DNA from: a virus | Strand: one strand, 5' to 3' | IMG/VR virus record: IMGVR_UViG_3300019889_000008 | Span: 9,827-73,826 of that record | DNA length: 64,000 nucleotides | In this document: in pieces, positions 9,476 through 54,662 of the stretch | Numbering within the stretch: position 1 is the stretch's first letter | Layout of the letters: each line of letters starts with the position of its first letter | Program-made: the position numbers and the translations under genes | Notes under the pieces: generated by a model | Told to the model about the DNA's origin: nothing | Seen by the model: only the letters and a program-made list of their open reading frames with translations | Databases searched by the model: none

Positions 9476-12400
9476 ATGGCCAAGGCAATCCCGATCGTCC
9501 TTGGCGTGGCGGCAATCGCCCTCACTGGTGGCGCGGCTATCCCTGGGGTCGCGGTTGGCCTCGGCATGACCGCGGGGATGATGTCGGCGATTGGTGTCGG
9601 GCTTTCGATCGCCGGCACCCTGGCCGCGACGCTCCTGGCGGAGACGCCGCCCAAGCCGCAGATGCAGGAGGGCGACGTCTCGATCCGGCAGGCGATCCCG
9701 CCTCGCGTCCGGCTCTACGGCCGGCAGCGGATCGGCGGGACGATGCTGTATTACGACAGCACCAACGACGGCGATCTGCTCAACCTGATCTGCCACTGCG
9801 CCCACGAGGTCGCCGAGTACGAGGAGGATTGGCTCAACGACGATCGGGTGCAGATCGACGAAAACGGCAACGTCCTAGATGACCCGTGGTGGCAAGAGGG
9901 TTCGTTCGGGGAGGAGGGCAGCAGCACCGTCGTCATCGTCCACAACCTGGGCTCGCCCGACCAAACGATCGGCGACCTACCAGATCCGCCGTGGACCGCG
10001 GAGCATCGCGGTCGCGGCCTCTGCGCCACGCGGGTCAAATATTCGGATCTGAAAGACGAAGACCAACTCAAGGTCTTCCCGAGTGGTCCGCCGCCTTATC
10101 GAGTGGTGCTGAAGGGCGCCAAGATCTTCGATCCGCGAGACGTTGGCCAGACCGCCGGGATCGAGGCAGGCTACCAATGGTCGGACAACGCGGCGCTCGT
10201 GGTCCTGGACTATCTGACCCGAACCGAAAGCGGCATCCCGGTCGGGTTCGGCATCCCGTTCGACCGCATCGATCTCACCAGTTTCACGCTCGCCGCGGAC
10301 GTGTCCGATCAACTGATCCCTATCAAGATCGAGGGCGAGGTCGTGGGTGTCGAGAAGCGGTGGCGCTCCTGGGGAGCCTACGAGCTGACCGAGGACCGCA
10401 AGGACGTCCTGAAAGATCTTCTCGACGCTTGCGCTGGCCGCCTGATCCAAGGCGGAGACGGCAGGATCGGATTGTCGGTCGGCTCCGGACGATATCGGGC
10501 CGAAGTGCTCGATGAATGGACTGTTCCAGATGGCATCCCCGTGTCGTCGGTGACCCTGGACGAAATGCAACTCTACGGGTGGGACCTGACCGAGGGGCGC
10601 CCCGCGATCGAGCGGGTGAACGAGGTCCGCGCGACCTACGTGTCCGAGGCTTGGGAATGGGCCGAGACCGAGGCCGGCATCCAGACCGACGAGGACGGGA
10701 TCGAGCGGAACGGCACCGAAAGCAGCCAGATCAAGCTTCGGTTCGTCCCGTCCGAGAGCCAGGCGCAGAGGGTGGCGCGGGAGGTTCTGCGCCGGGGCAA
10801 TCCGACCTGGACTGGTACGGTCCGCACCACCCTCGCGGGCCTCGACGCCTGGGGTGAGCGCTGGATTACCCTTCAGATCAGCGAACTCGAAATCGACGGG
10901 ATCTTTGAGATCACGGGAATCCGGCTCGATCGCGAGACCATGATGGTCGAGATCGGTGTCGCGTCCTATGACGCGTGGTGGGACTGGACCGCAGAGACCG
11001 ACGAGAAGGCCCCGGCTGTGCCGCCGCCCCTGATGGACGACGACGCCGAGATCCCGGTCCCCGAAAACGTCGTCGTCACGATCGCGCATCGTGCGCTGAA
11101 CAATGGCACCCTTGTGGCAGTCGGCATCATCGCGTGGGACCCGCCGCCGCGCTCGGTCTATGTCGGCAAGGCTCGGTATCGGCCGGTGTCTCCTGCGAAT
11201 GGGCCATGGCAGCCGCTCCCGGTGGCGCAGGATAGCAACCAAGTCGAGACGTTCCCGCTGGAAGACGGCATCGCCTATGAGGCCCAAGTGCGCTTCATCG
11301 GATCGCGCGGTTCCGGCAGCGATTGGTCGACCCCGCCAGCGCTGTTCACCGCGATTGCCGATCCGGTAGCCCCGTCCGCTCCTGTACTCCTGTCCGCCAC
11401 ACCAGCGGGCGCCAACGTCAACCTGTCCGCGACTGCCGCGAACAGCTCGAACCAACGCCTCATTCGGTTCTGGCGCGATAGCGATGCCACCTTTGCGGGC
11501 GCTGTCGACATCAGTGGTGCGATCTGGACCGGCCCGAACGGCATCGCAACCTACACCGATACGCCGGGTCCTGGGGCTTGGCGATATTGGGCGACCGCTG
11601 GCAACTGGAGCGACGTCGACAGCGCACCAATTGGGCCGGAGGCGGTGACGATCACGCCAGCGGCCCCGGTCATCGTCTCGCCGGCCACGCCCTATCTGAC
11701 CAGCGACAACACGCCCACTTACAGCGGCACCGGCCCAAACGGCACCACCGTGCATCTCTACGATGGCGCCACCGATGTCGGATCCATCGCTGTCGTAGCC
11801 GGCGCCTGGAGCATCACCGCGTCGACGCTGGCCGATGGTACGCGCAATGTCACGGCCGAGGCGGTTGCGCCAGGCCCAATCACCAGCGTCGCCAGCAACG
11901 TCGTTGTGACCACGATCGACACGGTGGTGTCGCCGCCGGTCATCACCACGTCGTCGCCGCTGTCGACCACCGACACCACGCCGGACACCAGCGGCACGTC
12001 GGAGCCCAGCGCCTCGATCGCCATGTTCCGCGGCGGCTCGACTCCTGCGGGATCTGCCACCGCGGACGGCGCCGGGGTCTGGACGGCGACGCTCTCGCCG
12101 GCACTGGCGGTTGGCAGTTATAGCATCACCGCCAAGCAGACCGACCTGGCAGGGAATACCTCGGGTGCGTCCTCGGCGCTGATCCTGAACGTAAACCCGC
12201 TGGCGCCAGCGATCAGCACCAGCACCGCGACCATTGGCAACACCAACCCCGTCGTCGCCGGCACGTCCACCGCCTCGGCCAGCATCGGCGTCTATGTCGA
12301 CGGCGTGCTCAACCAAACCGTGGCGGCCGATGGCTCGGGCGCCTGGACGGCGACCCTATCCGGCCTCACCGCCGGGGCGCGCAGCATCACGGCTCGGCAA

Positions 12401-48395: not shown

Positions 48396-49217
48396 ATGGT
48401 CGAGAACTGGCTCCGCTGGCACGTCGGGACCGGAACCGATCCGAAATGGAAGGTGGTCGCCCGCCGTTGCCGCCAGCCGGTCCATGCGGTCCTCGCGGTG
48501 TGGGCGCTGATGCTGGAGTGCGCATCGCAGGCTGCCGACCGGGGCACCCTGGAGGGGTGGGACGACGAGGATGCCGGCGCAGCGCTGGACCTGACCGTCG
48601 AGGATGTGGCCGCGATCCGTGAGGCCATGCAGGGCAAGGTGCTCGACGGTGGTCGTCTTGAAGCCTGGAGCCGGCGGCAACCGAAACGCGAAGACAATTC
48701 GGCAGATCGTGTCCGTGCGTTCCGCCAGCGAAAGCGAGCGTCACCGATCGTTACGGATGGCGATGTAACACAGGGTAACGCTTCGGAAACGCAAAGAAAC
48801 GCTAGAGGAGAGGAGAGGAGAGTAGAGGAGAAGAGAGAAGAACAAGATCCGGTTTTTTCGCTTCGCTCAAAAACCGACGCTCCTCGCGTTTCGGCTGAAG
48901 CCGAGCCCGCGGTCGCGTCGCCGATCGAACCGAAGGCCCCGGAAACACCGCAGCAGGCCCCGTCCAGGCCCATCGGCGACGTGCTGTGGGCGGAGGGGCT
49001 GGCGTACCTCAAACGGGCTGGTGTGCCGGAAAAGCAAGCCCGGTCGCTGCTGGGTCGCTGGCGCCGCGACTTCGGCGACGGCGAGGCCCTGGCCGCCATT
49101 GCCGAAGCCGACAAGGCCGCTGCCACGCAGCCGGTCGAATTCGTCACCGCCATCCTCCAGCGCCGCCGGCAGACCAGAAGCCGCGATGCGCCGTCGTCCA
49201 CCCGGTACGCGATCTAG
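48396..49217 (+). CDS. Phage replication initiator-like protein
   Basis: WLRWHVGT.TDPKWKVVAR, W..RQPKRED.SADRVRAFRQRK, EERRVEEKRE. Confidence 0.7.
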   Translation: MVENWLRWHVGTGTDPKWKVVARRCRQPVHAVLAVWALMLECASQAADRGTLEGWDDEDAGAALDLTVEDVAAIREAMQGKVLDGGRLEAWSRRQPKREDNSADRVRAFRQRKRASPIVTDGDVTQGNASETQRNARGEERRVEEKREEQDPVFSLRSKTDAPRVSAEAEPAVASPIEPKAPETPQQAPSRPIGDVLWAEGLAYLKRAGVPEKQARSLLGRWRRDFGDGEALAAIAEADKAAATQPVEFVTAILQRRRQTRSRDAPSSTRYAI

Positions 49218-49224
49218 GCCGGCC

Positions 49225-49539
49225 ATGCGGGTCGAGGTCACCAGCGTCCGCCAGGGGCTCGAAGCCCAAGGCTTCCGGCTCCGCTCCTACAACCCCGGCG
49301 AGCACCACTCCGTCTGCCCACGGTGCAGCCCCCAGAGGACGAAGAAAAATGCCCGATGCGTTTCCGTCCGGATCGAGCCCGATGGGGCCGCATGGCAATG
49401 CCACCACTGCGGATGGCGAGACGGCTTCCGGCTACACGGCGATCAGCCGGGCCGCCGAGAAGTGGTTCCACAAGCGGGGCATCCATCACGGCGCCCTTCG
49501 GGTTGGCGGCGTGTATTCGGAGGTTCGGGGCGGCTCTGA
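49225..49539 (+). CDS. Primase zinc-binding domain (separate reading frame)
   Basis: CPRCS..CVSV..WQCHHCGW. Confidence 0.75.
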   Translation: MRVEVTSVRQGLEAQGFRLRSYNPGEHHSVCPRCSPQRTKKNARCVSVRIEPDGAAWQCHHCGWRDGFRLHGDQPGRREVVPQAGHPSRRPSGWRRVFGGSGRL

Positions 49540-51901
49540 GGCGATCGTCTTCCCCTACCGGCGTCGCGGCACGATCGTGAACCGGAAATATCGAGCCGAG
49601 GGCAAGCGGCTCTGGATGGATACCGGCGGCGAGTTGATCCTGTGGAACCTGGACTGCCTGCTGTCGAACCCGGATCACGTCTACATCGTCGAGGGCGAGC
49701 CGGACGCCCTGGCCTTCATGGAGGCCGGGATCTGGAACGTGGTCTCGGTCCCGAACGGCGCGGCTCCGCCGGTTGAAGATGGCGACCGGGGGGTGCCCGA
49801 GCCCGACCGGGACGATGCCTTCCGCTACCTGTGGAACTGCCGGGACGAGTTGGCCGGCAAGCGCTTCGTCCTGGCCGGCGACACGGATGCGCCTGGCGTG
49901 CATCTCCGCCATTCGCTCGTGGCCCGGCTCGGCCGCGCCAACTGCGACGTCGTCGATTGGCCCGAGGGGGTCAAGGACGGCAATGACTACCTGATCGAGG
50001 TCGGGCCCGAAGCCTTCGCCGAGTACGTGCGGGCCAGCCGCAAGCCGTATCCCATCCGGGGCCTGTGGGCATGGAACGAGGTCCAGCCGACCCCGCCGAT
50101 GGAGACCCTCGACATCGGCATCCCGCTGCTGCGCCAGCACGTCCGGCTGGCCCGCGGAACCGTCTCGGTCGTCACCGGCATCCCGAACCACGGGAAGGCA
50201 TTGGACATCGACACGCCGATCCCGACGCCATCGGGCTGGACCACCATGGGCGCGTTGCAACCCGGCGATCAGGTGTTCGACGAGAAGGGGAAGCCGTGCC
50301 GGGTCGTCGCCGCAACGCCGGTCATGCACGACCGACCGTGCCACCGGATGCGGTTCTCGGGCGGCGCCGAGATCGTGGCCGATGCCGCTCACGAATGGGC
50401 GACCGTATCTGAGGCGGCTCGGCGCCGCGCCAGGACCACCAGCACCAATGCTCGGCTGTCGATCTCCACGACCGCGGAGATCGCGGCGTCGCTGAAATCG
50501 CAAGGCAAGAACAACCACCAGATCCCGCTCTGCCGGCCGCTGGAACTCCCGGAGGCGGCGTTGCCGATCGAGCCCTATGTCCTCGGCGTCTGGCTCGGCA
50601 ATGGCACCACCGCATCGTCCGGCCTCACGCAGTTCGACCTAGCCGTGATCACGGGCATCCGCGAGGCCGGCTACGGCGTGAACGAGCGAGCCCGCGCCGG
50701 GAGCTTCTGGATCGTCGGCCTCAACCCGCTGCTGCGTGCCCTGGGCCTGCTCGGCGACAAGCACATCCCGGCGATCTATCTCCGGGCCTCGGCTCCGCAG
50801 CGGCTGGCTCTGCTGCAAGGTCTGATGGACACGGACGGTTACTGCCATCCGGAGAACGGATGCGAGTTCACGTCCGTCAAGCGCGCGCTCGCCGAGGGCG
50901 CCTATGAACTGGCACTGTCGCTCGGTATCCGGGCTCGCTGGAGCGAGGGCAGAGCAACGATCGACGGCCGGGATTGCGGCCCGAAATATCGGGTGCTGTT
51001 CTCAACCGACGTCCCGGTGTTCCGCCTGGAGCGGAAACTCGCACGCCAGAAGATCGGTCGGCACACGAAGGTCGGCGCCTGGACGGTCACCGCCTGCGAC
51101 CCCGTCGACAGCGTGCCGGTGCGATGCATCCAGGTTGACTCGCCGTCCAGCCTGTTCCTCGCCGGGCGGCAGATGATCCCGACGCACAACTCCGCCCTGT
51201 GGAAGCAGATCGCCTGCCAGATGATCAAACTCCACGGCTGGAACGTCACCGCCGCCAGTTTCGAGGACCGGGTCTACGCGAACCTCATGCCCGAGCTGCT
51301 CCGGATCATGAGCGGCCTCGGGCCCTCCCTGGAGCCCTGGGTCGTGGCGGCGCGGGCCGAGGCGGCCCTGGTGCTGGCCAAGCACATGTCCTTCATCGCC
51401 GACGAGGGCTATGTCGACGAGCCCATGACCCTGAAGTGGCTGGTCGACATCGCACGGGATGCGAAGATCCGGTACGGCACCGCCTTCTTGATCTTCGACC
51501 CGTGGAACGAGATCGAGCACCTGTGGGGTCGCGATCAGAACGAGACGCAGTACATCGGCGAGGCGCTCCGGGATCTGAGGCGGCTCGCCGTCGAACTGGA
51601 CATGCACATCATGATCGTCGCGCACCCGACCAAGGTGCTCGATGGTCAGGCGCCAGGGCTCTACCACATTTCCGGATCGGCCCATTGGGCAAACAAGGTC
51701 GACATCGGCCTTGTCGTGCATCAGCCGCACTTCGCCCAAGGCCCAGGCGGCCCGACCGAGATCTACGTCCGCAAGATCAAGCGCGCCGAACTCGGTCAGC
51801 GCGGGATCGTGACCGTCCAGTTCAACCCGGCCACCGCCTCGTTCGAGGCCCCAGCCGGCCGCCCCTTTGATGATCCCGACGTGGAAAGGACCGCAGCATG
51901 A
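49349..51901 (+). CDS. TOPRIM primase-SF4 helicase (T7 gp4/Twinkle-like) containing an intein
   Basis: IVEGEPDAL, SVPNGA, DTDAPG, KDGND, TGIPNHGK|S, IFDPWN, VAHPTK, ISGSAHW; start codon uncertain. Confidence 0.9.
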   Translation: MPDAFPSGSSPMGPHGNATTADGETASGYTAISRAAEKWFHKRGIHHGALRVGGVYSEVRGGSEAIVFPYRRRGTIVNRKYRAEGKRLWMDTGGELILWNLDCLLSNPDHVYIVEGEPDALAFMEAGIWNVVSVPNGAAPPVEDGDRGVPEPDRDDAFRYLWNCRDELAGKRFVLAGDTDAPGVHLRHSLVARLGRANCDVVDWPEGVKDGNDYLIEVGPEAFAEYVRASRKPYPIRGLWAWNEVQPTPPMETLDIGIPLLRQHVRLARGTVSVVTGIPNHGKALDIDTPIPTPSGWTTMGALQPGDQVFDEKGKPCRVVAATPVMHDRPCHRMRFSGGAEIVADAAHEWATVSEAARRRARTTSTNARLSISTTAEIAASLKSQGKNNHQIPLCRPLELPEAALPIEPYVLGVWLGNGTTASSGLTQFDLAVITGIREAGYGVNERARAGSFWIVGLNPLLRALGLLGDKHIPAIYLRASAPQRLALLQGLMDTDGYCHPENGCEFTSVKRALAEGAYELALSLGIRARWSEGRATIDGRDCGPKYRVLFSTDVPVFRLERKLARQKIGRHTKVGAWTVTACDPVDSVPVRCIQVDSPSSLFLAGRQMIPTHNSALWKQIACQMIKLHGWNVTAASFEDRVYANLMPELLRIMSGLGPSLEPWVVAARAEAALVLAKHMSFIADEGYVDEPMTLKWLVDIARDAKIRYGTAFLIFDPWNEIEHLWGRDQNETQYIGEALRDLRRLAVELDMHIMIVAHPTKVLDGQAPGLYHISGSAHWANKVDIGLVVHQPHFAQGPGGPTEIYVRKIKRAELGQRGIVTVQFNPATASFEAPAGRPFDDPDVERTAA
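50198..51190 (+). mobile_element. Ala-starting (class 3-type) intein with LAGLIDADG-like endonuclease in the helicase P-loop
   Basis: GK|ALDIDTPIPTPSGW..HEW..LQGLMDTDG..VRCIQV..IPTHN|S. Confidence 0.92.
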
Positions 51902-52188
51902 GCGATGCAATGAACGAGGGCCTGCCCGTGGCCGGCTACCGGCCGCAGACCGACGAGGCCGTCGCTCTCGTCAACGAGAACAAGGAACTGGAGGAGCGCG
52001 TCCTTCGCCAGATGGATGCGATCCGCGCGCTCGTCAACGAGGGCGAGCCGGACCTGATCGACTTGCGGTGGTTCGCCATCGCCAGGACGCAGATCGAGCA
52101 GGGCTTCATGGCGCTCAACCGGTCGATCTTCAAACCCGGCCGGGTCCGCCTAGCCGACGACGATGCGCCGCCGAAGGCAGGGCCGTGA
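51898..52188 (+). CDS. Acb2/Tad1-like cyclic-nucleotide sponge (anti-CBASS)
   Basis: GYRPQ..VNENKELE..RWFAIARTQIEQGFMALNRSIFKP. Confidence 0.7.
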   Translation: MSDAMNEGLPVAGYRPQTDEAVALVNENKELEERVLRQMDAIRALVNEGEPDLIDLRWFAIARTQIEQGFMALNRSIFKPGRVRLADDDAPPKAGP

Positions 52189-52387
52189 TGGGATGGTTCC
52201 TCAATTGGTTTTGGGGGCCTGAGCCCGAGTTCAAGCCGGGCGAGGCCCTGCCGTTCCTCCGCTGGCGCGGCGACCGTCTCGTCCGGCCGCGGGTCCCGCC
52301 GCCGATCCAGTACATCATCCAGGGCCCCCGGCTCCCGTGGGTCAACGAGCACAAAATGCCGGGCCGCCGTCCGGAGGATCTCCGCTG

Positions 52388-53479
52388 ATGCTCCGCCTGC
52401 TCGATCTCTTCGCCGGCATCGGCGGCATGAGCCTGGGCCTCCAGCGATCGGGCCATTTCCGCCCGGTGGCGTTCTGCGAGATCGATCCGTTCTGCCAGCA
52501 CGTCCTCCGCAAGCATTGGCCCGAGGTTCCGATCTATGGCGACGTCCGAACCCTCAACCGAGCCCGCCTCGCCGCCGATGGAATTGCCGTTGACGCCATC
52601 TGCGGCGGCTTCCCCTGCCAGGACATCTCGGCCGCGGGGCGAGGCGCGGGGCTTCATGGCTCCCGTTCCGTTCTCTGGCGTGAGTTCGCTCGACTGCTTG
52701 GCGATCTACGACCCCGATACGCGATCGTGGAAAACGTCGATGCTCTCGCTTTTCGGGGTCTCGGAATCGTTCTTGGAGACTTGGCCGCGCTCGGGTTCGA
52801 TGCGGTCTGGCATTGCATACCGGCTGCCGCCGTTGGTGCCCGACACCTGCGCGAGCGGGTCTGGATTGTGGCCTACACCGATCGCTCGGGATTGGAAGAG
52901 CAGTTCTACCGCCACGCGCCAGAACTCGCGGCCGCTGTCGGAACACATACCTGGGGCTCTGAACCCCCTGTGGGTCGAATGGCTTATGGGATTTCCCCTT
53001 TACTGGTCGGAGGTGGCGTAGATGAAGCGGCCGTGGCGCATCCGGAAGGCGGCGCAGCGCGCCGTCTCGCTGGCCGGAAAGCAATGCAGCGAGTGCAACG
53101 GGACGCACCGGCTCCAGAGACATCATCCGGATTATTCGAAGCCGAGCGAGATCGTCATCCTCTGCCAGCGGTGCCACGTCGCGGCCGACATAGCAGCAGG
53201 CTTCCGGAAGGTGAAGCAGCCGAAGCTCTGCAAGGTGTGCGGAACCGAGTTCCTGCCGAACCACAGCCGGAAGCACAGCACGTGCAGCCGGGAGTGCCTC
53301 TCGGAGATCGGCCGCCAGAATTCGTTGAAGCGGTGGCGCCGGGTGGCCGAAAACCAAAGGCCCGCAAGCGCAAGCTGATGAAGAACCGCGTCAACCGCGT
53401 TCGCGCGCTCGGCAATTCCGCGGTCCCACAAATCCCGGAAATCATTGGCCGTCTGATCGGCAACCTGGAGGCAGCGTGA
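52388..53479 (+). CDS. C5-cytosine DNA methyltransferase, alpha chain
   Basis: LDLFAGIGG, GGFPCQD, ENV, RERVW; motif X RVRALGNSAVPQ. Confidence 0.9.
   Translation: MLRLLDLFAGIGGMSLGLQRSGHFRPVAFCEIDPFCQHVLRKHWPEVPIYGDVRTLNRARLAADGIAVDAICGGFPCQDISAAGRGAGLHGSRSVLWREFARLLGDLRPRYAIVENVDALAFRGLGIVLGDLAALGFDAVWHCIPAAAVGARHLRERVWIVAYTDRSGLEEQFYRHAPELAAAVGTHTWGSEPPVGRMAYGISPLLVGGGVDEAAVAHPEGGAARRLAGRKAMQRVQRDAPAPETSSGLFEAERDRHPLPAVPRRGRHSSRLPEGEAAEALQGVRNRVPAEPQPEAQHVQPGVPLGDRPPEFVEAVAPGGRKPKARKRKLMKNRVNRVRALGNSAVPQIPEIIGRLIGNLEAA
52536..53021 (+). CDS. MTase beta chain overprinted in an alternative frame
   Basis: TWPRSGSMRSG, LWPTP.ARDWK, LNPLWVEWLMGFP (motif IX-like). Confidence 0.75.
   Translation: MATSEPSTEPASPPMELPLTPSAAASPARTSRPRGEARGFMAPVPFSGVSSLDCLAIYDPDTRSWKTSMLSLFGVSESFLETWPRSGSMRSGIAYRLPPLVPDTCASGSGLWPTPIARDWKSSSTATRQNSRPLSEHIPGALNPLWVEWLMGFPLYWSEVA
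53022..53378 (+). CDS. HNH/zinc-finger protein nested inside the MTase alpha gene
   Basis: CSEC..HHPDYSKP..LCQRCH..CKVCG..CSREC; GGAGGT RBS. Confidence 0.75.
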   Translation: MKRPWRIRKAAQRAVSLAGKQCSECNGTHRLQRHHPDYSKPSEIVILCQRCHVAADIAAGFRKVKQPKLCKVCGTEFLPNHSRKHSTCSRECLSEIGRQNSLKRWRRVAENQRPASAS

Positions 53480-54156
53480 TCCACTATCACGGGACGCCGA
53501 TCTCCCCGGTGATCGAACGGCAGAAGATGGCCGGCAAGCACTTCTGCGTCTCGTTCGAGCGGCCGGACGATGCCGAATGGTGCCTCGCCAACGGGCAGTC
53601 GGTGCTGTGGGACAATGGGGCCTATAGCGCCTTCCGCCACGGCAAGCCGCTGGACACCGGCAAGCTTTACGCATGGCTTGAGCGGCGTCTGGCGCAGCCC
53701 CATTGGGCCATCATCCCAGACCGGATCGGCGGCGACACCGACGAGCAGCGGGCCATGGTTTCGGCCTGGCCGTTCCCGAGGACCCTCGGAGCGCCGGTCT
53801 GGCACATGGCGCTGGCGATCGACTATTTGCTCGAACTGGCCGACGAGTGGCCGAGGATCTGCTTCGGCAGTTCCGCTCGATACTGGCAGATCGGCAGCCC
53901 GATTTGGGAGCGCCGCTGCGACGAGGCGTTCAACGCCCTGGCCAAGCGGCATCCGCGGTTGCCGTGGGTCCACATGCTGCGCGGCCTCGCCCTGGCCGGC
54001 GACCGGTGGCCCTTCGCCTCGGTCGACAGCGCCAACGTCGGGCGAAACTTCAAGACCCTCAACACGTGTCCCGAGCGCATGGCCCGCCGGCTCGACGCCA
54101 TCCAGTGCCCGATCATCTGGACCCCGCGGATGGTGCAGCAGGATCTCGTCGCATGA
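53476..54156 (+). CDS. TGT-fold DpdA-like 7-deazaguanine transglycosylase candidate
   Basis: DNGAYS, PDRIGG, PVWH, GSS, HMLRG and SVDS in TGT-barrel order. Confidence 0.6.
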   Translation: MIHYHGTPISPVIERQKMAGKHFCVSFERPDDAEWCLANGQSVLWDNGAYSAFRHGKPLDTGKLYAWLERRLAQPHWAIIPDRIGGDTDEQRAMVSAWPFPRTLGAPVWHMALAIDYLLELADEWPRICFGSSARYWQIGSPIWERRCDEAFNALAKRHPRLPWVHMLRGLALAGDRWPFASVDSANVGRNFKTLNTCPERMARRLDAIQCPIIWTPRMVQQDLVA

Positions 54157-54662
54157 TGCTCCTGGCCCTCTACGTCCTCACGGTCCCGGCCGCCAATTGG
54201 CTGATCGGCAACGTCGGTCGCTGCGTGCCGGATGGCCCGTGCCTGATCCCGGTCGGGCTGGGCCTGGAGGCACCGAGCGGCGTGCTCATGGTCGGCCTGG
54301 CGCTCGTCCTCCGGGACGCCATTCAGCGCCGATACGGCGTCGCCCGCTCGCTCGCCGCGGTCCTGGTGGGATGCCTTGCCTCCCTGCTGCTGGCGCCGCA
54401 CGAACTGGTCATCGCCTCGGGCGCCGCCTTCCTGTTCTCCGAGTTGGCCGACCTTGCCGTCTACACGCCGCTCCAGCGGCGCCGGCTCGTCCTGGCCGTG
54501 CTCGCCTCCGGTGTCGTCGGCGCCGCCGTAGACAGCGCGCTCTTCCTCTGGATCGCGTTCGGGTCGTTGGACTTCTTCGCCGGGCAGATGCTCGGGAAGG
54601 TCTACATGACCGTCGCCGCGATCCCTCTCGTGCTCCTGACCAGAAAGAGGGCTCTCGCATGA
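54153..54662 (+). CDS. VUT/YhhQ-family preQ0/preQ1 transporter
   Basis: AANW..LVLRDAIQ..ASGAAFLFSELADLAVY..VDSALFLWIAFG..GK. Confidence 0.85.
   Translation: MMLLALYVLTVPAANWLIGNVGRCVPDGPCLIPVGLGLEAPSGVLMVGLALVLRDAIQRRYGVARSLAAVLVGCLASLLLAPHELVIASGAAFLFSELADLAVYTPLQRRRLVLAVLASGVVGAAVDSALFLWIAFGSLDFFAGQMLGKVYMTVAAIPLVLLTRKRALA

Follow-up and report, generated by a model that had tools for sequence, protein, structure and literature searches.

A putative homing-type HNH gene overprinted within a two-chain C5 methyltransferase gene of a soil virus

How an endonuclease gene can lie inside another protein-coding gene with no intron or intein around it is the question raised by a 1.1-kb stretch (52388-53479, plus strand) of the virus record IMGVR_UViG_3300019889_000008. 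This IMG/VR record comes from soil, is 73.8 kb long and was classified as complete by CheckV; the window analysed here is a 64,000-nt part of it (positions 9,827 to 73,826), and all coordinates without a locus label refer to the window. Three proteins are encoded in two reading frames of the 1.1-kb stretch: the alpha chain of a C5 methyltransferase, its beta chain, and a small HNH protein. These three open reading frames (ORFs) had been proposed in an earlier sequence-only reading, and their coordinates match it exactly. We consider it probable that a free-standing homing-type HNH gene is maintained here by overprinting within a two-chain C5 methyltransferase gene. The observations made at this locus and its relatives are the three frames, the double coding of the two methylase chains, the boundaries of an insertion, a selected open host frame, and a patchy distribution of the HNH gene.

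The alpha ORF (52388-53479, plus strand; 363 aa) begins with the ATG at 52388 and ends with the stop codon at 53477-53479. The alignments with homologues start at this ATG and not at the upstream GTG 52337, and a Shine–Dalgarno-like GGAGG (52373-52377, plus strand) can be read 10 nt 5' of it. The protein matches the Pfam family DNA_methylase, PF00145 (1e-34, aa 3-168), and phrog_363 (6.6e-69, covering both ends). In alpha and 16 homologues, the residues F8, G10-G13, P76-C77-Q78, E115-N116, R155, R157, and G342-N343 are invariant; these columns fall in FAGIGG, GFPCQ, ENV, HLRERV, and LGNSAVP, which correspond to motifs I (FxGxGG), IV (PCQ), VI (ENV), VIII (RxR), and X (GN..VP) on one chain. Motif X (RVRALGNSAVPQIPEIIGRLI; 53396-53458, plus strand; G342, N343, V346, and P347 invariant) lies in the alpha frame, 3' of the insertion described below and separated from motifs I-VIII by a read-through linker of 129 codons. 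The profile matches and the alignment bear out the motif order that had been read from the letters, I-VIII followed by X, and by its motif content alpha can be assigned to the C5 cytosine DNA methyltransferases. After motif VIII, alpha is a non-conserved off-frame read of the variable part of beta, so an arbitrary linker is always present in this chain.

The recognition region and motif IX, which are missing from alpha, are supplied by a protein in the +1 frame, as the beta alignment indicates. The beta ORF (52536-53021, plus strand) encodes 161 aa counted from its first ATG, the likely start codon, with GAGG at 52523-52526, 9 nt 5' of this ATG. It matches phrog_1008 (6e-19) and bears out the earlier description of a motif-IX-bearing peptide in the alternative frame. 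The conserved blocks of beta are YDPxTxSW(K/R)TS (also given as YDPxTSSWRTSQ), ETWPRSGxMRxG (ETWPRSGMMRxG), and WPTP, followed by a region of variable length in which WPTPxA modules recur and by the motif-IX-like block LNPxWVEWLMGFP (LNPTWVEWLMGFPxGWT in the alignment). A tblastn search with beta matched 69 phage records, every time inside a gene annotated as a methylase but in its alternative frame, for example in Che9d gp80 and Synechococcus phage Ssp-JY42. Relatives of beta were found in at least 579 viral contigs, of which the best 80 loci were kept; the order of frames, f for the N-terminal part of alpha, f+1 for beta, and f again for motif X, holds for 78 of about 82 loci. When the PDB was searched by sequence, beta and the HNH profile returned only chance matches, to zinc-ribbon and Kelch-repeat proteins.

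In some cluster F mycobacteriophages, the annotation divides an alpha/beta methylase into two genes that follow and overlap each other (L003:1233-1992, Seabastian gp75/gp76; L111:2272-3361, Dorothy gp71/gp72); there, the alpha frame is not continuous, and the second of the two genes corresponds to the beta frame. At L002:1309-1971, the common beta tail ...GWTDLEPSETxSSRK is the +1 reading of alpha RVDRLRALGNAVVPQ, that is, of motif X. A double ribosomal frameshift producing one chain was also considered and dropped, as beta has its own Shine–Dalgarno-like site and ATG, the ORFs are separate in two loci described below (L097 and L099), and M.EcoHK31I consists of two chains.

The overlap of alpha and beta leaves a clear trace in the codons. 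In a codon alignment of 72 distinct genes, third-codon conservation of alpha rises from about 0.4-0.6 to 0.8-1.0 from about codon 103 onwards. Over alpha codons 100-165 of the 72 distinct viral genes, the +1 frame shows 54.7% identity against 29.3% after synonymous permutation (z 104) and contains no stops, where about 124 were expected; over the control codons 5-95, the +1 frame shows 31% against 27% identity and 109 stops. Protein-level selection acts in both frames of the zone 52689-52997 (plus strand), where alpha motifs VI-VIII and EPxVGRxA lie over the core of beta. The alpha/beta overprint is a family-wide trait, with double coding far beyond chance.

This double coding across the family supports the proposal that the enzyme is of the M.EcoHK31I kind. 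In M.EcoHK31I, an alpha/beta C5 methyltransferase of E. coli HK31 (YGGCCR), the coding sequence of beta lies within that of alpha, in a different frame (Lee, Kam and Shaw 1995, as treated in PMC2836561), and in that account the activity of the enzyme needs both chains, which provides an experimental precedent (PMC2836561). Compared by architecture as described, both systems have motifs I-VIII and X in alpha, and motif IX in a beta chain of the alternative frame. They differ in that M.EcoHK31I has no endonuclease insertion and its recognition domain is placed in alpha (PMC2836561), whereas in the present family the variable region with WPTP repeats is in beta. For alpha (363 aa, insert included) and beta of the window, complex prediction gave a score of 0.90, against 0.01 for the best control; the mark applied to this score is reached by 58 of 80 solved complexes and by 2 of 110 mismatched pairs. 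The prediction runs shared at least 73% of contacts, and the pLDDT (predicted local distance difference test) of the partner was at least 74. The predicted contacts involve residues 138-155 and 330-348 on the alpha side and residues 42-52 and 98-113 on the beta side; alpha 201-329 is free of contacts, and motif IX of beta is predicted to pack against motif X of alpha. The passing score may stem from resemblance to solved single-chain C5 methyltransferases.

The third gene (53022-53378, plus strand) encodes 118 aa and, as had been claimed for an HNH/Zn-finger ORF, starts at the base directly after the TAG of beta. Its GGAGG Shine–Dalgarno site (53009-53013, plus strand) lies 8 nt before the ATG 53022, within the last codons of beta. 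The HNH/Zn core C22, C25, H34, H35, C48, C51, H52 (CxxC...HH...CxxCH) and a C-terminal Cys4 zinc ribbon (C70, C73, C88, C92) are invariant in 12 sequences, and the protein matches phrog_2340 (endonuclease, 2e-9) and phrog_1271 (HNH, 1e-5). The structural model (pLDDT 86) has strands at 31-34 and 45-48 and a helix at 49-59. For the first 63 residues of this model, VIA-align placed 4h9d (Z 5.4) and 5h0o (Z 5.0) at the top, followed by Hpy99I and McrA; Foldseek found no match of the model in the PDB at E <=0.001. The two top matches, Gme HNH (4h9d) and GVE2 HNH (5h0o), are zinc-ribbon phage HNH proteins which are encoded beside terminase genes and help DNA packaging (PMC3592412). They share with the present protein the small ββα-Me core, the CxxC...CxxC zinc site, and an extra zinc ribbon; they adjoin terminase genes, whereas the HNH gene here lies inside a methylase gene and its product shows no evident counterpart of the asparagine in the classic H-N-H motif. 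A tblastn search of 50,697 phage records revealed only weak matches, to an endonuclease of Staphylococcus phage K-like phages, and 15 homologues are on record among 5.8 billion proteins. Given the catalytic His and the Cys4 zinc site, which lie in a predicted ββα fold, the protein appears, by residues and model, to be an HNH (ββα-Me) endonuclease; we infer its nuclease activity, its target, and the start codons.

The boundaries of the insertion become visible in comparison with L007 and L014, the closest relatives, whose alpha chains are 95% and 90% identical, respectively, and which have no HNH gene. The alignment with HNH-less homologues that the sequence-only reading had called for maps the insertion as a gap of 387 nt, or 129 alpha codons, at 52998-53384 (plus strand), and the "130 low-information codons" noted there are this insertion. 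The cassette brings a new C-terminus of beta (LYWSEVA and the stop), the ribosome-binding site, and the HNH gene; only 30 of its 387 nt lie outside the HNH ORF. The junction of the empty allele, of the L007 type, is TGGCTCCTTGGCTTCCCT/ATCGGGTGGACC. Away from the insert, the gene is 91-95% identical to L007 upstream and 96-98% downstream; directly at the insert, identity falls to 62.5% over the 32 nt of 52966-52997, which resembles a co-conversion tract, and to 73% over the 15 nt of 53385-53399 (both plus strand). Such diverged flanks are the pattern expected from co-conversion of donor flanks and point to recombination with a foreign allele. In the source soil sample, contigs from two runs span both junctions unchanged, and no contig skips the insert. 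A search of sequencing runs found the stretch in this soil sample only, and in no RNA run.

Homologues found with the HNH profile, 31-76% identical, occupy the same site in some 20 further methylase genes of the alpha/beta type, after the GWT of beta and before motif X. They were found in the viral contigs L021, L039, L056, L087, L088, L090, L091, L094, L095, L097, L099, and L104, in the metagenome contigs L112-L118, and in one contig of a metagenome-assembled genome (MAG), L106. A scan of representative bacterial genomes revealed one locus within a methylase (L106) and otherwise four weak zinc-ribbon matches. At L106:1326-1646 (Gammaproteobacteria MAG contig, GC content 0.41), the HNH frame is broken by a stop codon that separates the core from the zinc ribbon, with alpha remaining open, and this may be a decaying copy. 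The stop of beta and the start of the HNH gene abut in most loci, including the window, L021, L087, L088, and L095, and most of the other HNH loci have a Shine–Dalgarno-like GGAG or GGAGG at comparable spacing, the GGAG coming from the codons for WTE. L056 and L091 have beta and HNH fused in a single ORF, in which the internal ATG and Shine–Dalgarno site are retained.

The surroundings of the insert vary between loci. In several of them, about 12-17 codons (W..EPxxGRVAxGVPxRVD) are duplicated on either side of the HNH gene; the upstream copy retains the beta reading, and the downstream copy retains the alpha reading with no beta overlap, which indicates that the motif is selected in alpha too. 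In one HNH subtype (L090:2486-2881), the HNH ORF ends with this tail, ...GWTDLEPSETxSSRK, so that the cassette has a copy of that segment on either side. At L097:1438-2877 and L099:1600-2910, which have low GC content, alpha stops after motif VIII, the HNH gene is in the third frame, and the beta frame reads through it into motif X. This layout resembles M.AquI, except that there is an HNH gene in the third frame inside beta. Finally, gp45 of Staphylococcus phage CUB-EPI_14 (L105:812-2617), annotated as one DNA-cytosine methyltransferase of 601 aa, is a single-chain C5 enzyme; it contains in the +1 frame an HNH/zinc-ribbon ORF of 164 aa (1959-2453) with a GGAGGAG site, just before motif IX. 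This HNH is more distant, and its position differs from that in the alpha/beta-type loci.

The frame in which the host chain reads through the HNH gene is free of stops in all 22 methylase loci with a hidden HNH, the window included, at GC contents of 0.39-0.65 (computed for 21 of them); the remaining third frame contains 1-16 stops. When HNH codons are permuted synonymously, the frame stays open in 14.7% of cases for the window and in 0.1-2% for most other loci, and in a fraction below 0.001 in loci with a GC content of 0.39-0.53. The free-standing homologue L119, located outside a methylase, has 14 stops in the corresponding frame. Across the family, these sequence comparisons indicate that the open host frame is held by selection. 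The earlier idea that the insertion is tolerated through a stop-free off-frame therefore stands as regards the open frame and is refined as regards its cause, since selection across the family, and not luck alone, keeps it open.

The linker encoded by the read-through frame is another matter. Its identity among loci is 0.263 against 0.220 in permuted sequences, and that of a control frame is 0.277 against 0.248; because the excess is no greater than in the control frame, the linker is treated as a spacer. The 129-residue linker as a selected protein in itself was rejected, its conservation being no greater than relatedness explains.

The open frames and the state of the residues also bear on whether the locus is a decaying relic, i.e. 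an old cassette in which the HNH, the interrupted alpha, or both are nonfunctional and the frame is open by chance in DNA of 65% GC. The chance value for the window alone would permit this, but the catalytic and zinc residues of its HNH and the motifs of its alpha are all intact, the HNH gene has a Shine–Dalgarno site and an ATG, and the 22 of 22 open frames show that continuity of alpha is selected. Even granting that HNH decay occurs, as in L106, and that phage methylases are dispensable (PMC11855218), we find a relic very doubtful.

If the insertion were spliced out, either from the RNA as a compact intron or from the protein as an unusual intein, mature alpha would lack the spacer. Homing endonucleases are usually housed in introns and inteins, and the same phage has an intein-like insertion with a LAGLIDADG domain in its primase-helicase. 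At the methylase, however, no intron family was found by Rfam at E <=1 over 51800-54200, and the Pfam scan of the in-frame read of alpha returned DNA_methylase only, with no Hint or intein family. There is no room for a ribozyme in an insert with 30 nt outside the HNH ORF, the linker shows no conservation beyond relatedness, and an intron would not need the open host frame found in every one of the 22 loci. By sequence, neither an intron nor an intein can be recognised at the insertion, which supports the original proposal of an endonuclease inserted without either, and splicing appears scarcely credible.

A third alternative concerns the role of the nuclease. The HNH could be a working partner of the methylase that uses the recognition region of beta to cut unmethylated sites, in the manner of a restriction-modification or exclusion module. 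Its constant place behind beta and in the beta frame, the abutting codons or outright fusion seen at the loci named above, and the existence of HNH restriction enzymes (Hpy99I and McrA are among the structural matches) would suit such a partnership. Yet no more than about 2% of the family carry the HNH (the window and three of the 80 top-ranking beta loci), and the closest relatives L007 and L014 do without it; a partner gene need not sit within alpha at the cost of a 129-residue spacer, and the fused loci retain the internal ATG and Shine–Dalgarno site. The scattered distribution and the diverged flanks fit invasion. We regard a partnership of this kind as unlikely. The sequence-only reading had offered splicing-free homing and a compact restriction-modification-like unit as two options; the first is retained and the second finds little backing, since a mobile selfish gene is favoured by the scattered occurrence, by the constant position within the host gene, and by the divergence of the flanks. 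It is also conceivable, if doubtful, that the cassette turns an orphan phage methylase into a cut-unless-methylated module through beta recognition, spreading by homing and excluding unmethylated competitor phages; the HNH may borrow the DNA recognition of beta because it is translated right behind beta or fused to it.

The distribution of the HNH gene was compared with a tree of the N-terminal part of alpha (90 rows, 11 HNH-bearing genes). The HNH-bearing genes require 9 changes on this tree, against a mean of 10.4 after shuffling, and a single HNH clade costs 379 log-likelihood units and is rejected by the approximately unbiased (AU) test (p 1e-52). HNH identity correlates only moderately with alpha identity (r 0.57), and in some pairs the HNH proteins are clearly closer to each other than the methylases are; in the pair L039-L090, for example, the HNH proteins are 76% identical and the alpha chains 58%.

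Several points weigh against a mobile, functional HNH gene of the homing type. On the tree alone, many losses could mimic many gains, and the HNH copies are 45-76% identical to one another, about as diverged as the methylases, so the invasions are mostly old. For the window taken by itself, the open frame is not significant. The fusion of beta and HNH in L056 and L091 is not required by a purely selfish element. The structural matches of the HNH are modest (Z about 5), and the Pfam scan of its 118 aa gave no HNH family at E <=0.1, with only a sub-threshold match to the NinG zinc ribbon. The reading also presumes that alpha is active with a 129-residue spacer before motif X.

With these points taken into account, the overprinted homing-type gene remains the probable explanation, and its working can be proposed as follows. 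Alpha would provide the catalytic core (motifs I-VIII) and motif X, and beta the variable DNA-recognition region and motif IX; by analogy with M.EcoHK31I, the two would assemble into one enzyme. A free-standing HNH gene with its own Shine–Dalgarno site would have been inserted in the beta frame, behind the functional end of beta and before motif X of alpha, and the nuclease would be made by ribosomes that finish beta or bind the GGAGG. Ribosomes translating alpha would cross the HNH gene in its -1 frame and produce a spacer of 129 residues with no conserved sequence, presumably looped out before motif X. This extra spacer may be affordable because alpha already tolerates an arbitrary off-frame linker over the variable region of beta. 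Selection would purge stops from the read-through frame, for which synonymous changes in the HNH gene suffice. The nuclease would most likely home, cutting HNH-less methylase alleles of co-infecting relatives, whereupon repair would copy the gene together with short flanks.

The closest known parallel in design is the ShiLan domain (Arsenault, Gosselin and Gogarten 2025, PMC11855218; Gosselin et al. 2023, PMC9957025), an insertion which conceals an HNH gene out of frame within an actinophage methylase gene. The host frame runs through this insertion without a stop, features of introns or inteins are lacking, and the distribution is patchy (PMC11855218). In all these respects, the present insertion is alike: an out-of-frame HNH in a phage methylase gene, a stop-free host frame, no splicing signature, and a scattered occurrence over the tree; in both cases, a short repeat of the target region flanks the insert, and the in-frame read is predicted to loop out. 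The host genes differ, since that of ShiLan is an N6/N4 amino-methyltransferase, as assigned through Dorothy gp75 (PF01555 N6_N4_Mtase match), an intein-bearing member of the family according to PMC9957025, and the host here is a two-chain C5 enzyme. The ShiLan HNH has 195 aa and is in the +2 frame, whereas the present one has 118 aa and is in the +1 frame, which is also the frame of the second host chain, so that three proteins are encoded on the same stretch here. The authors of the ShiLan study did not find a ribosome-binding site and suggested leaderless initiation at GTG, in contrast to the canonical GGAGG and the ATG abutting the beta stop in the window. A tblastn search with the HNH of the window found no mycobacteriophage match and no detectable likeness to the ShiLan HNH. 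Judging from these comparisons, the HNH here appears to work like the ShiLan element but to be a separate lineage.

In T4-like phages, free-standing homing endonucleases make genes-in-pieces, as with mobE, which splits nrdA in Aeromonas phage Aeh1. There too, a free-standing homing endonuclease lies in a conserved phage gene with no intron or intein, and the function of the host gene survives; the difference is that the host is split into two polypeptides, whereas here the host frame reads through and yields one chain.

Further features were found near the methylase. Directly upstream, at 51898-52188 (plus strand), a 96-aa protein with the Pfam Acb2/Tad1 hairpin domain (4.8e-18) is encoded, which suggests the anti-CBASS/Thoeris sponge family. 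The ORF at 53476-54156 (plus strand), overlapping the stop of alpha in GTGA, matches phrog_887 (4.5e-35) and is similar to queuine tRNA-ribosyltransferase (DpdA-like); the next ORF, 54153-54662 (plus strand), matches Pfam Vut_1 (YhhQ-type transporter, 8e-14). As a pair, these ORFs resemble a cassette for 7-deazaguanine salvage that is chained to the methylase. The Toprim primase-helicase ORF (48986-51901, plus strand) includes a stretch with Cys at its beginning and HN-S at its end, and a LAGLIDADG_3 domain (2.9e-6) lies within it; this insertion looks like an intein, a second and classical homing element 1 kb upstream.

Each half of the arrangement was known before, the nested methylase from M.EcoHK31I and the hidden HNH from ShiLan; their combination is new. 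Beta is almost never annotated, and gene callers overlook two of the three genes. Host genes with nested frames may be favoured sites of insertion, since any sequence is already tolerated in their off-frame linkers. The locus bears on a question left open in PMC11855218, namely how a hidden HNH is translated: here, the HNH gene has a canonical ribosome-binding site and follows immediately after the stop codon of a second host chain. It offers a compact, testable system for selection on three overlapping products. If the proposed reading holds, overprinting allows a homing endonuclease gene to be maintained within another coding gene without any splicing, and this strategy would extend beyond the amino-methylases of actinophages to the abundant C5 methylases of environmental phages, with GC contents of 0.39-0.65, and to a Staphylococcus phage.

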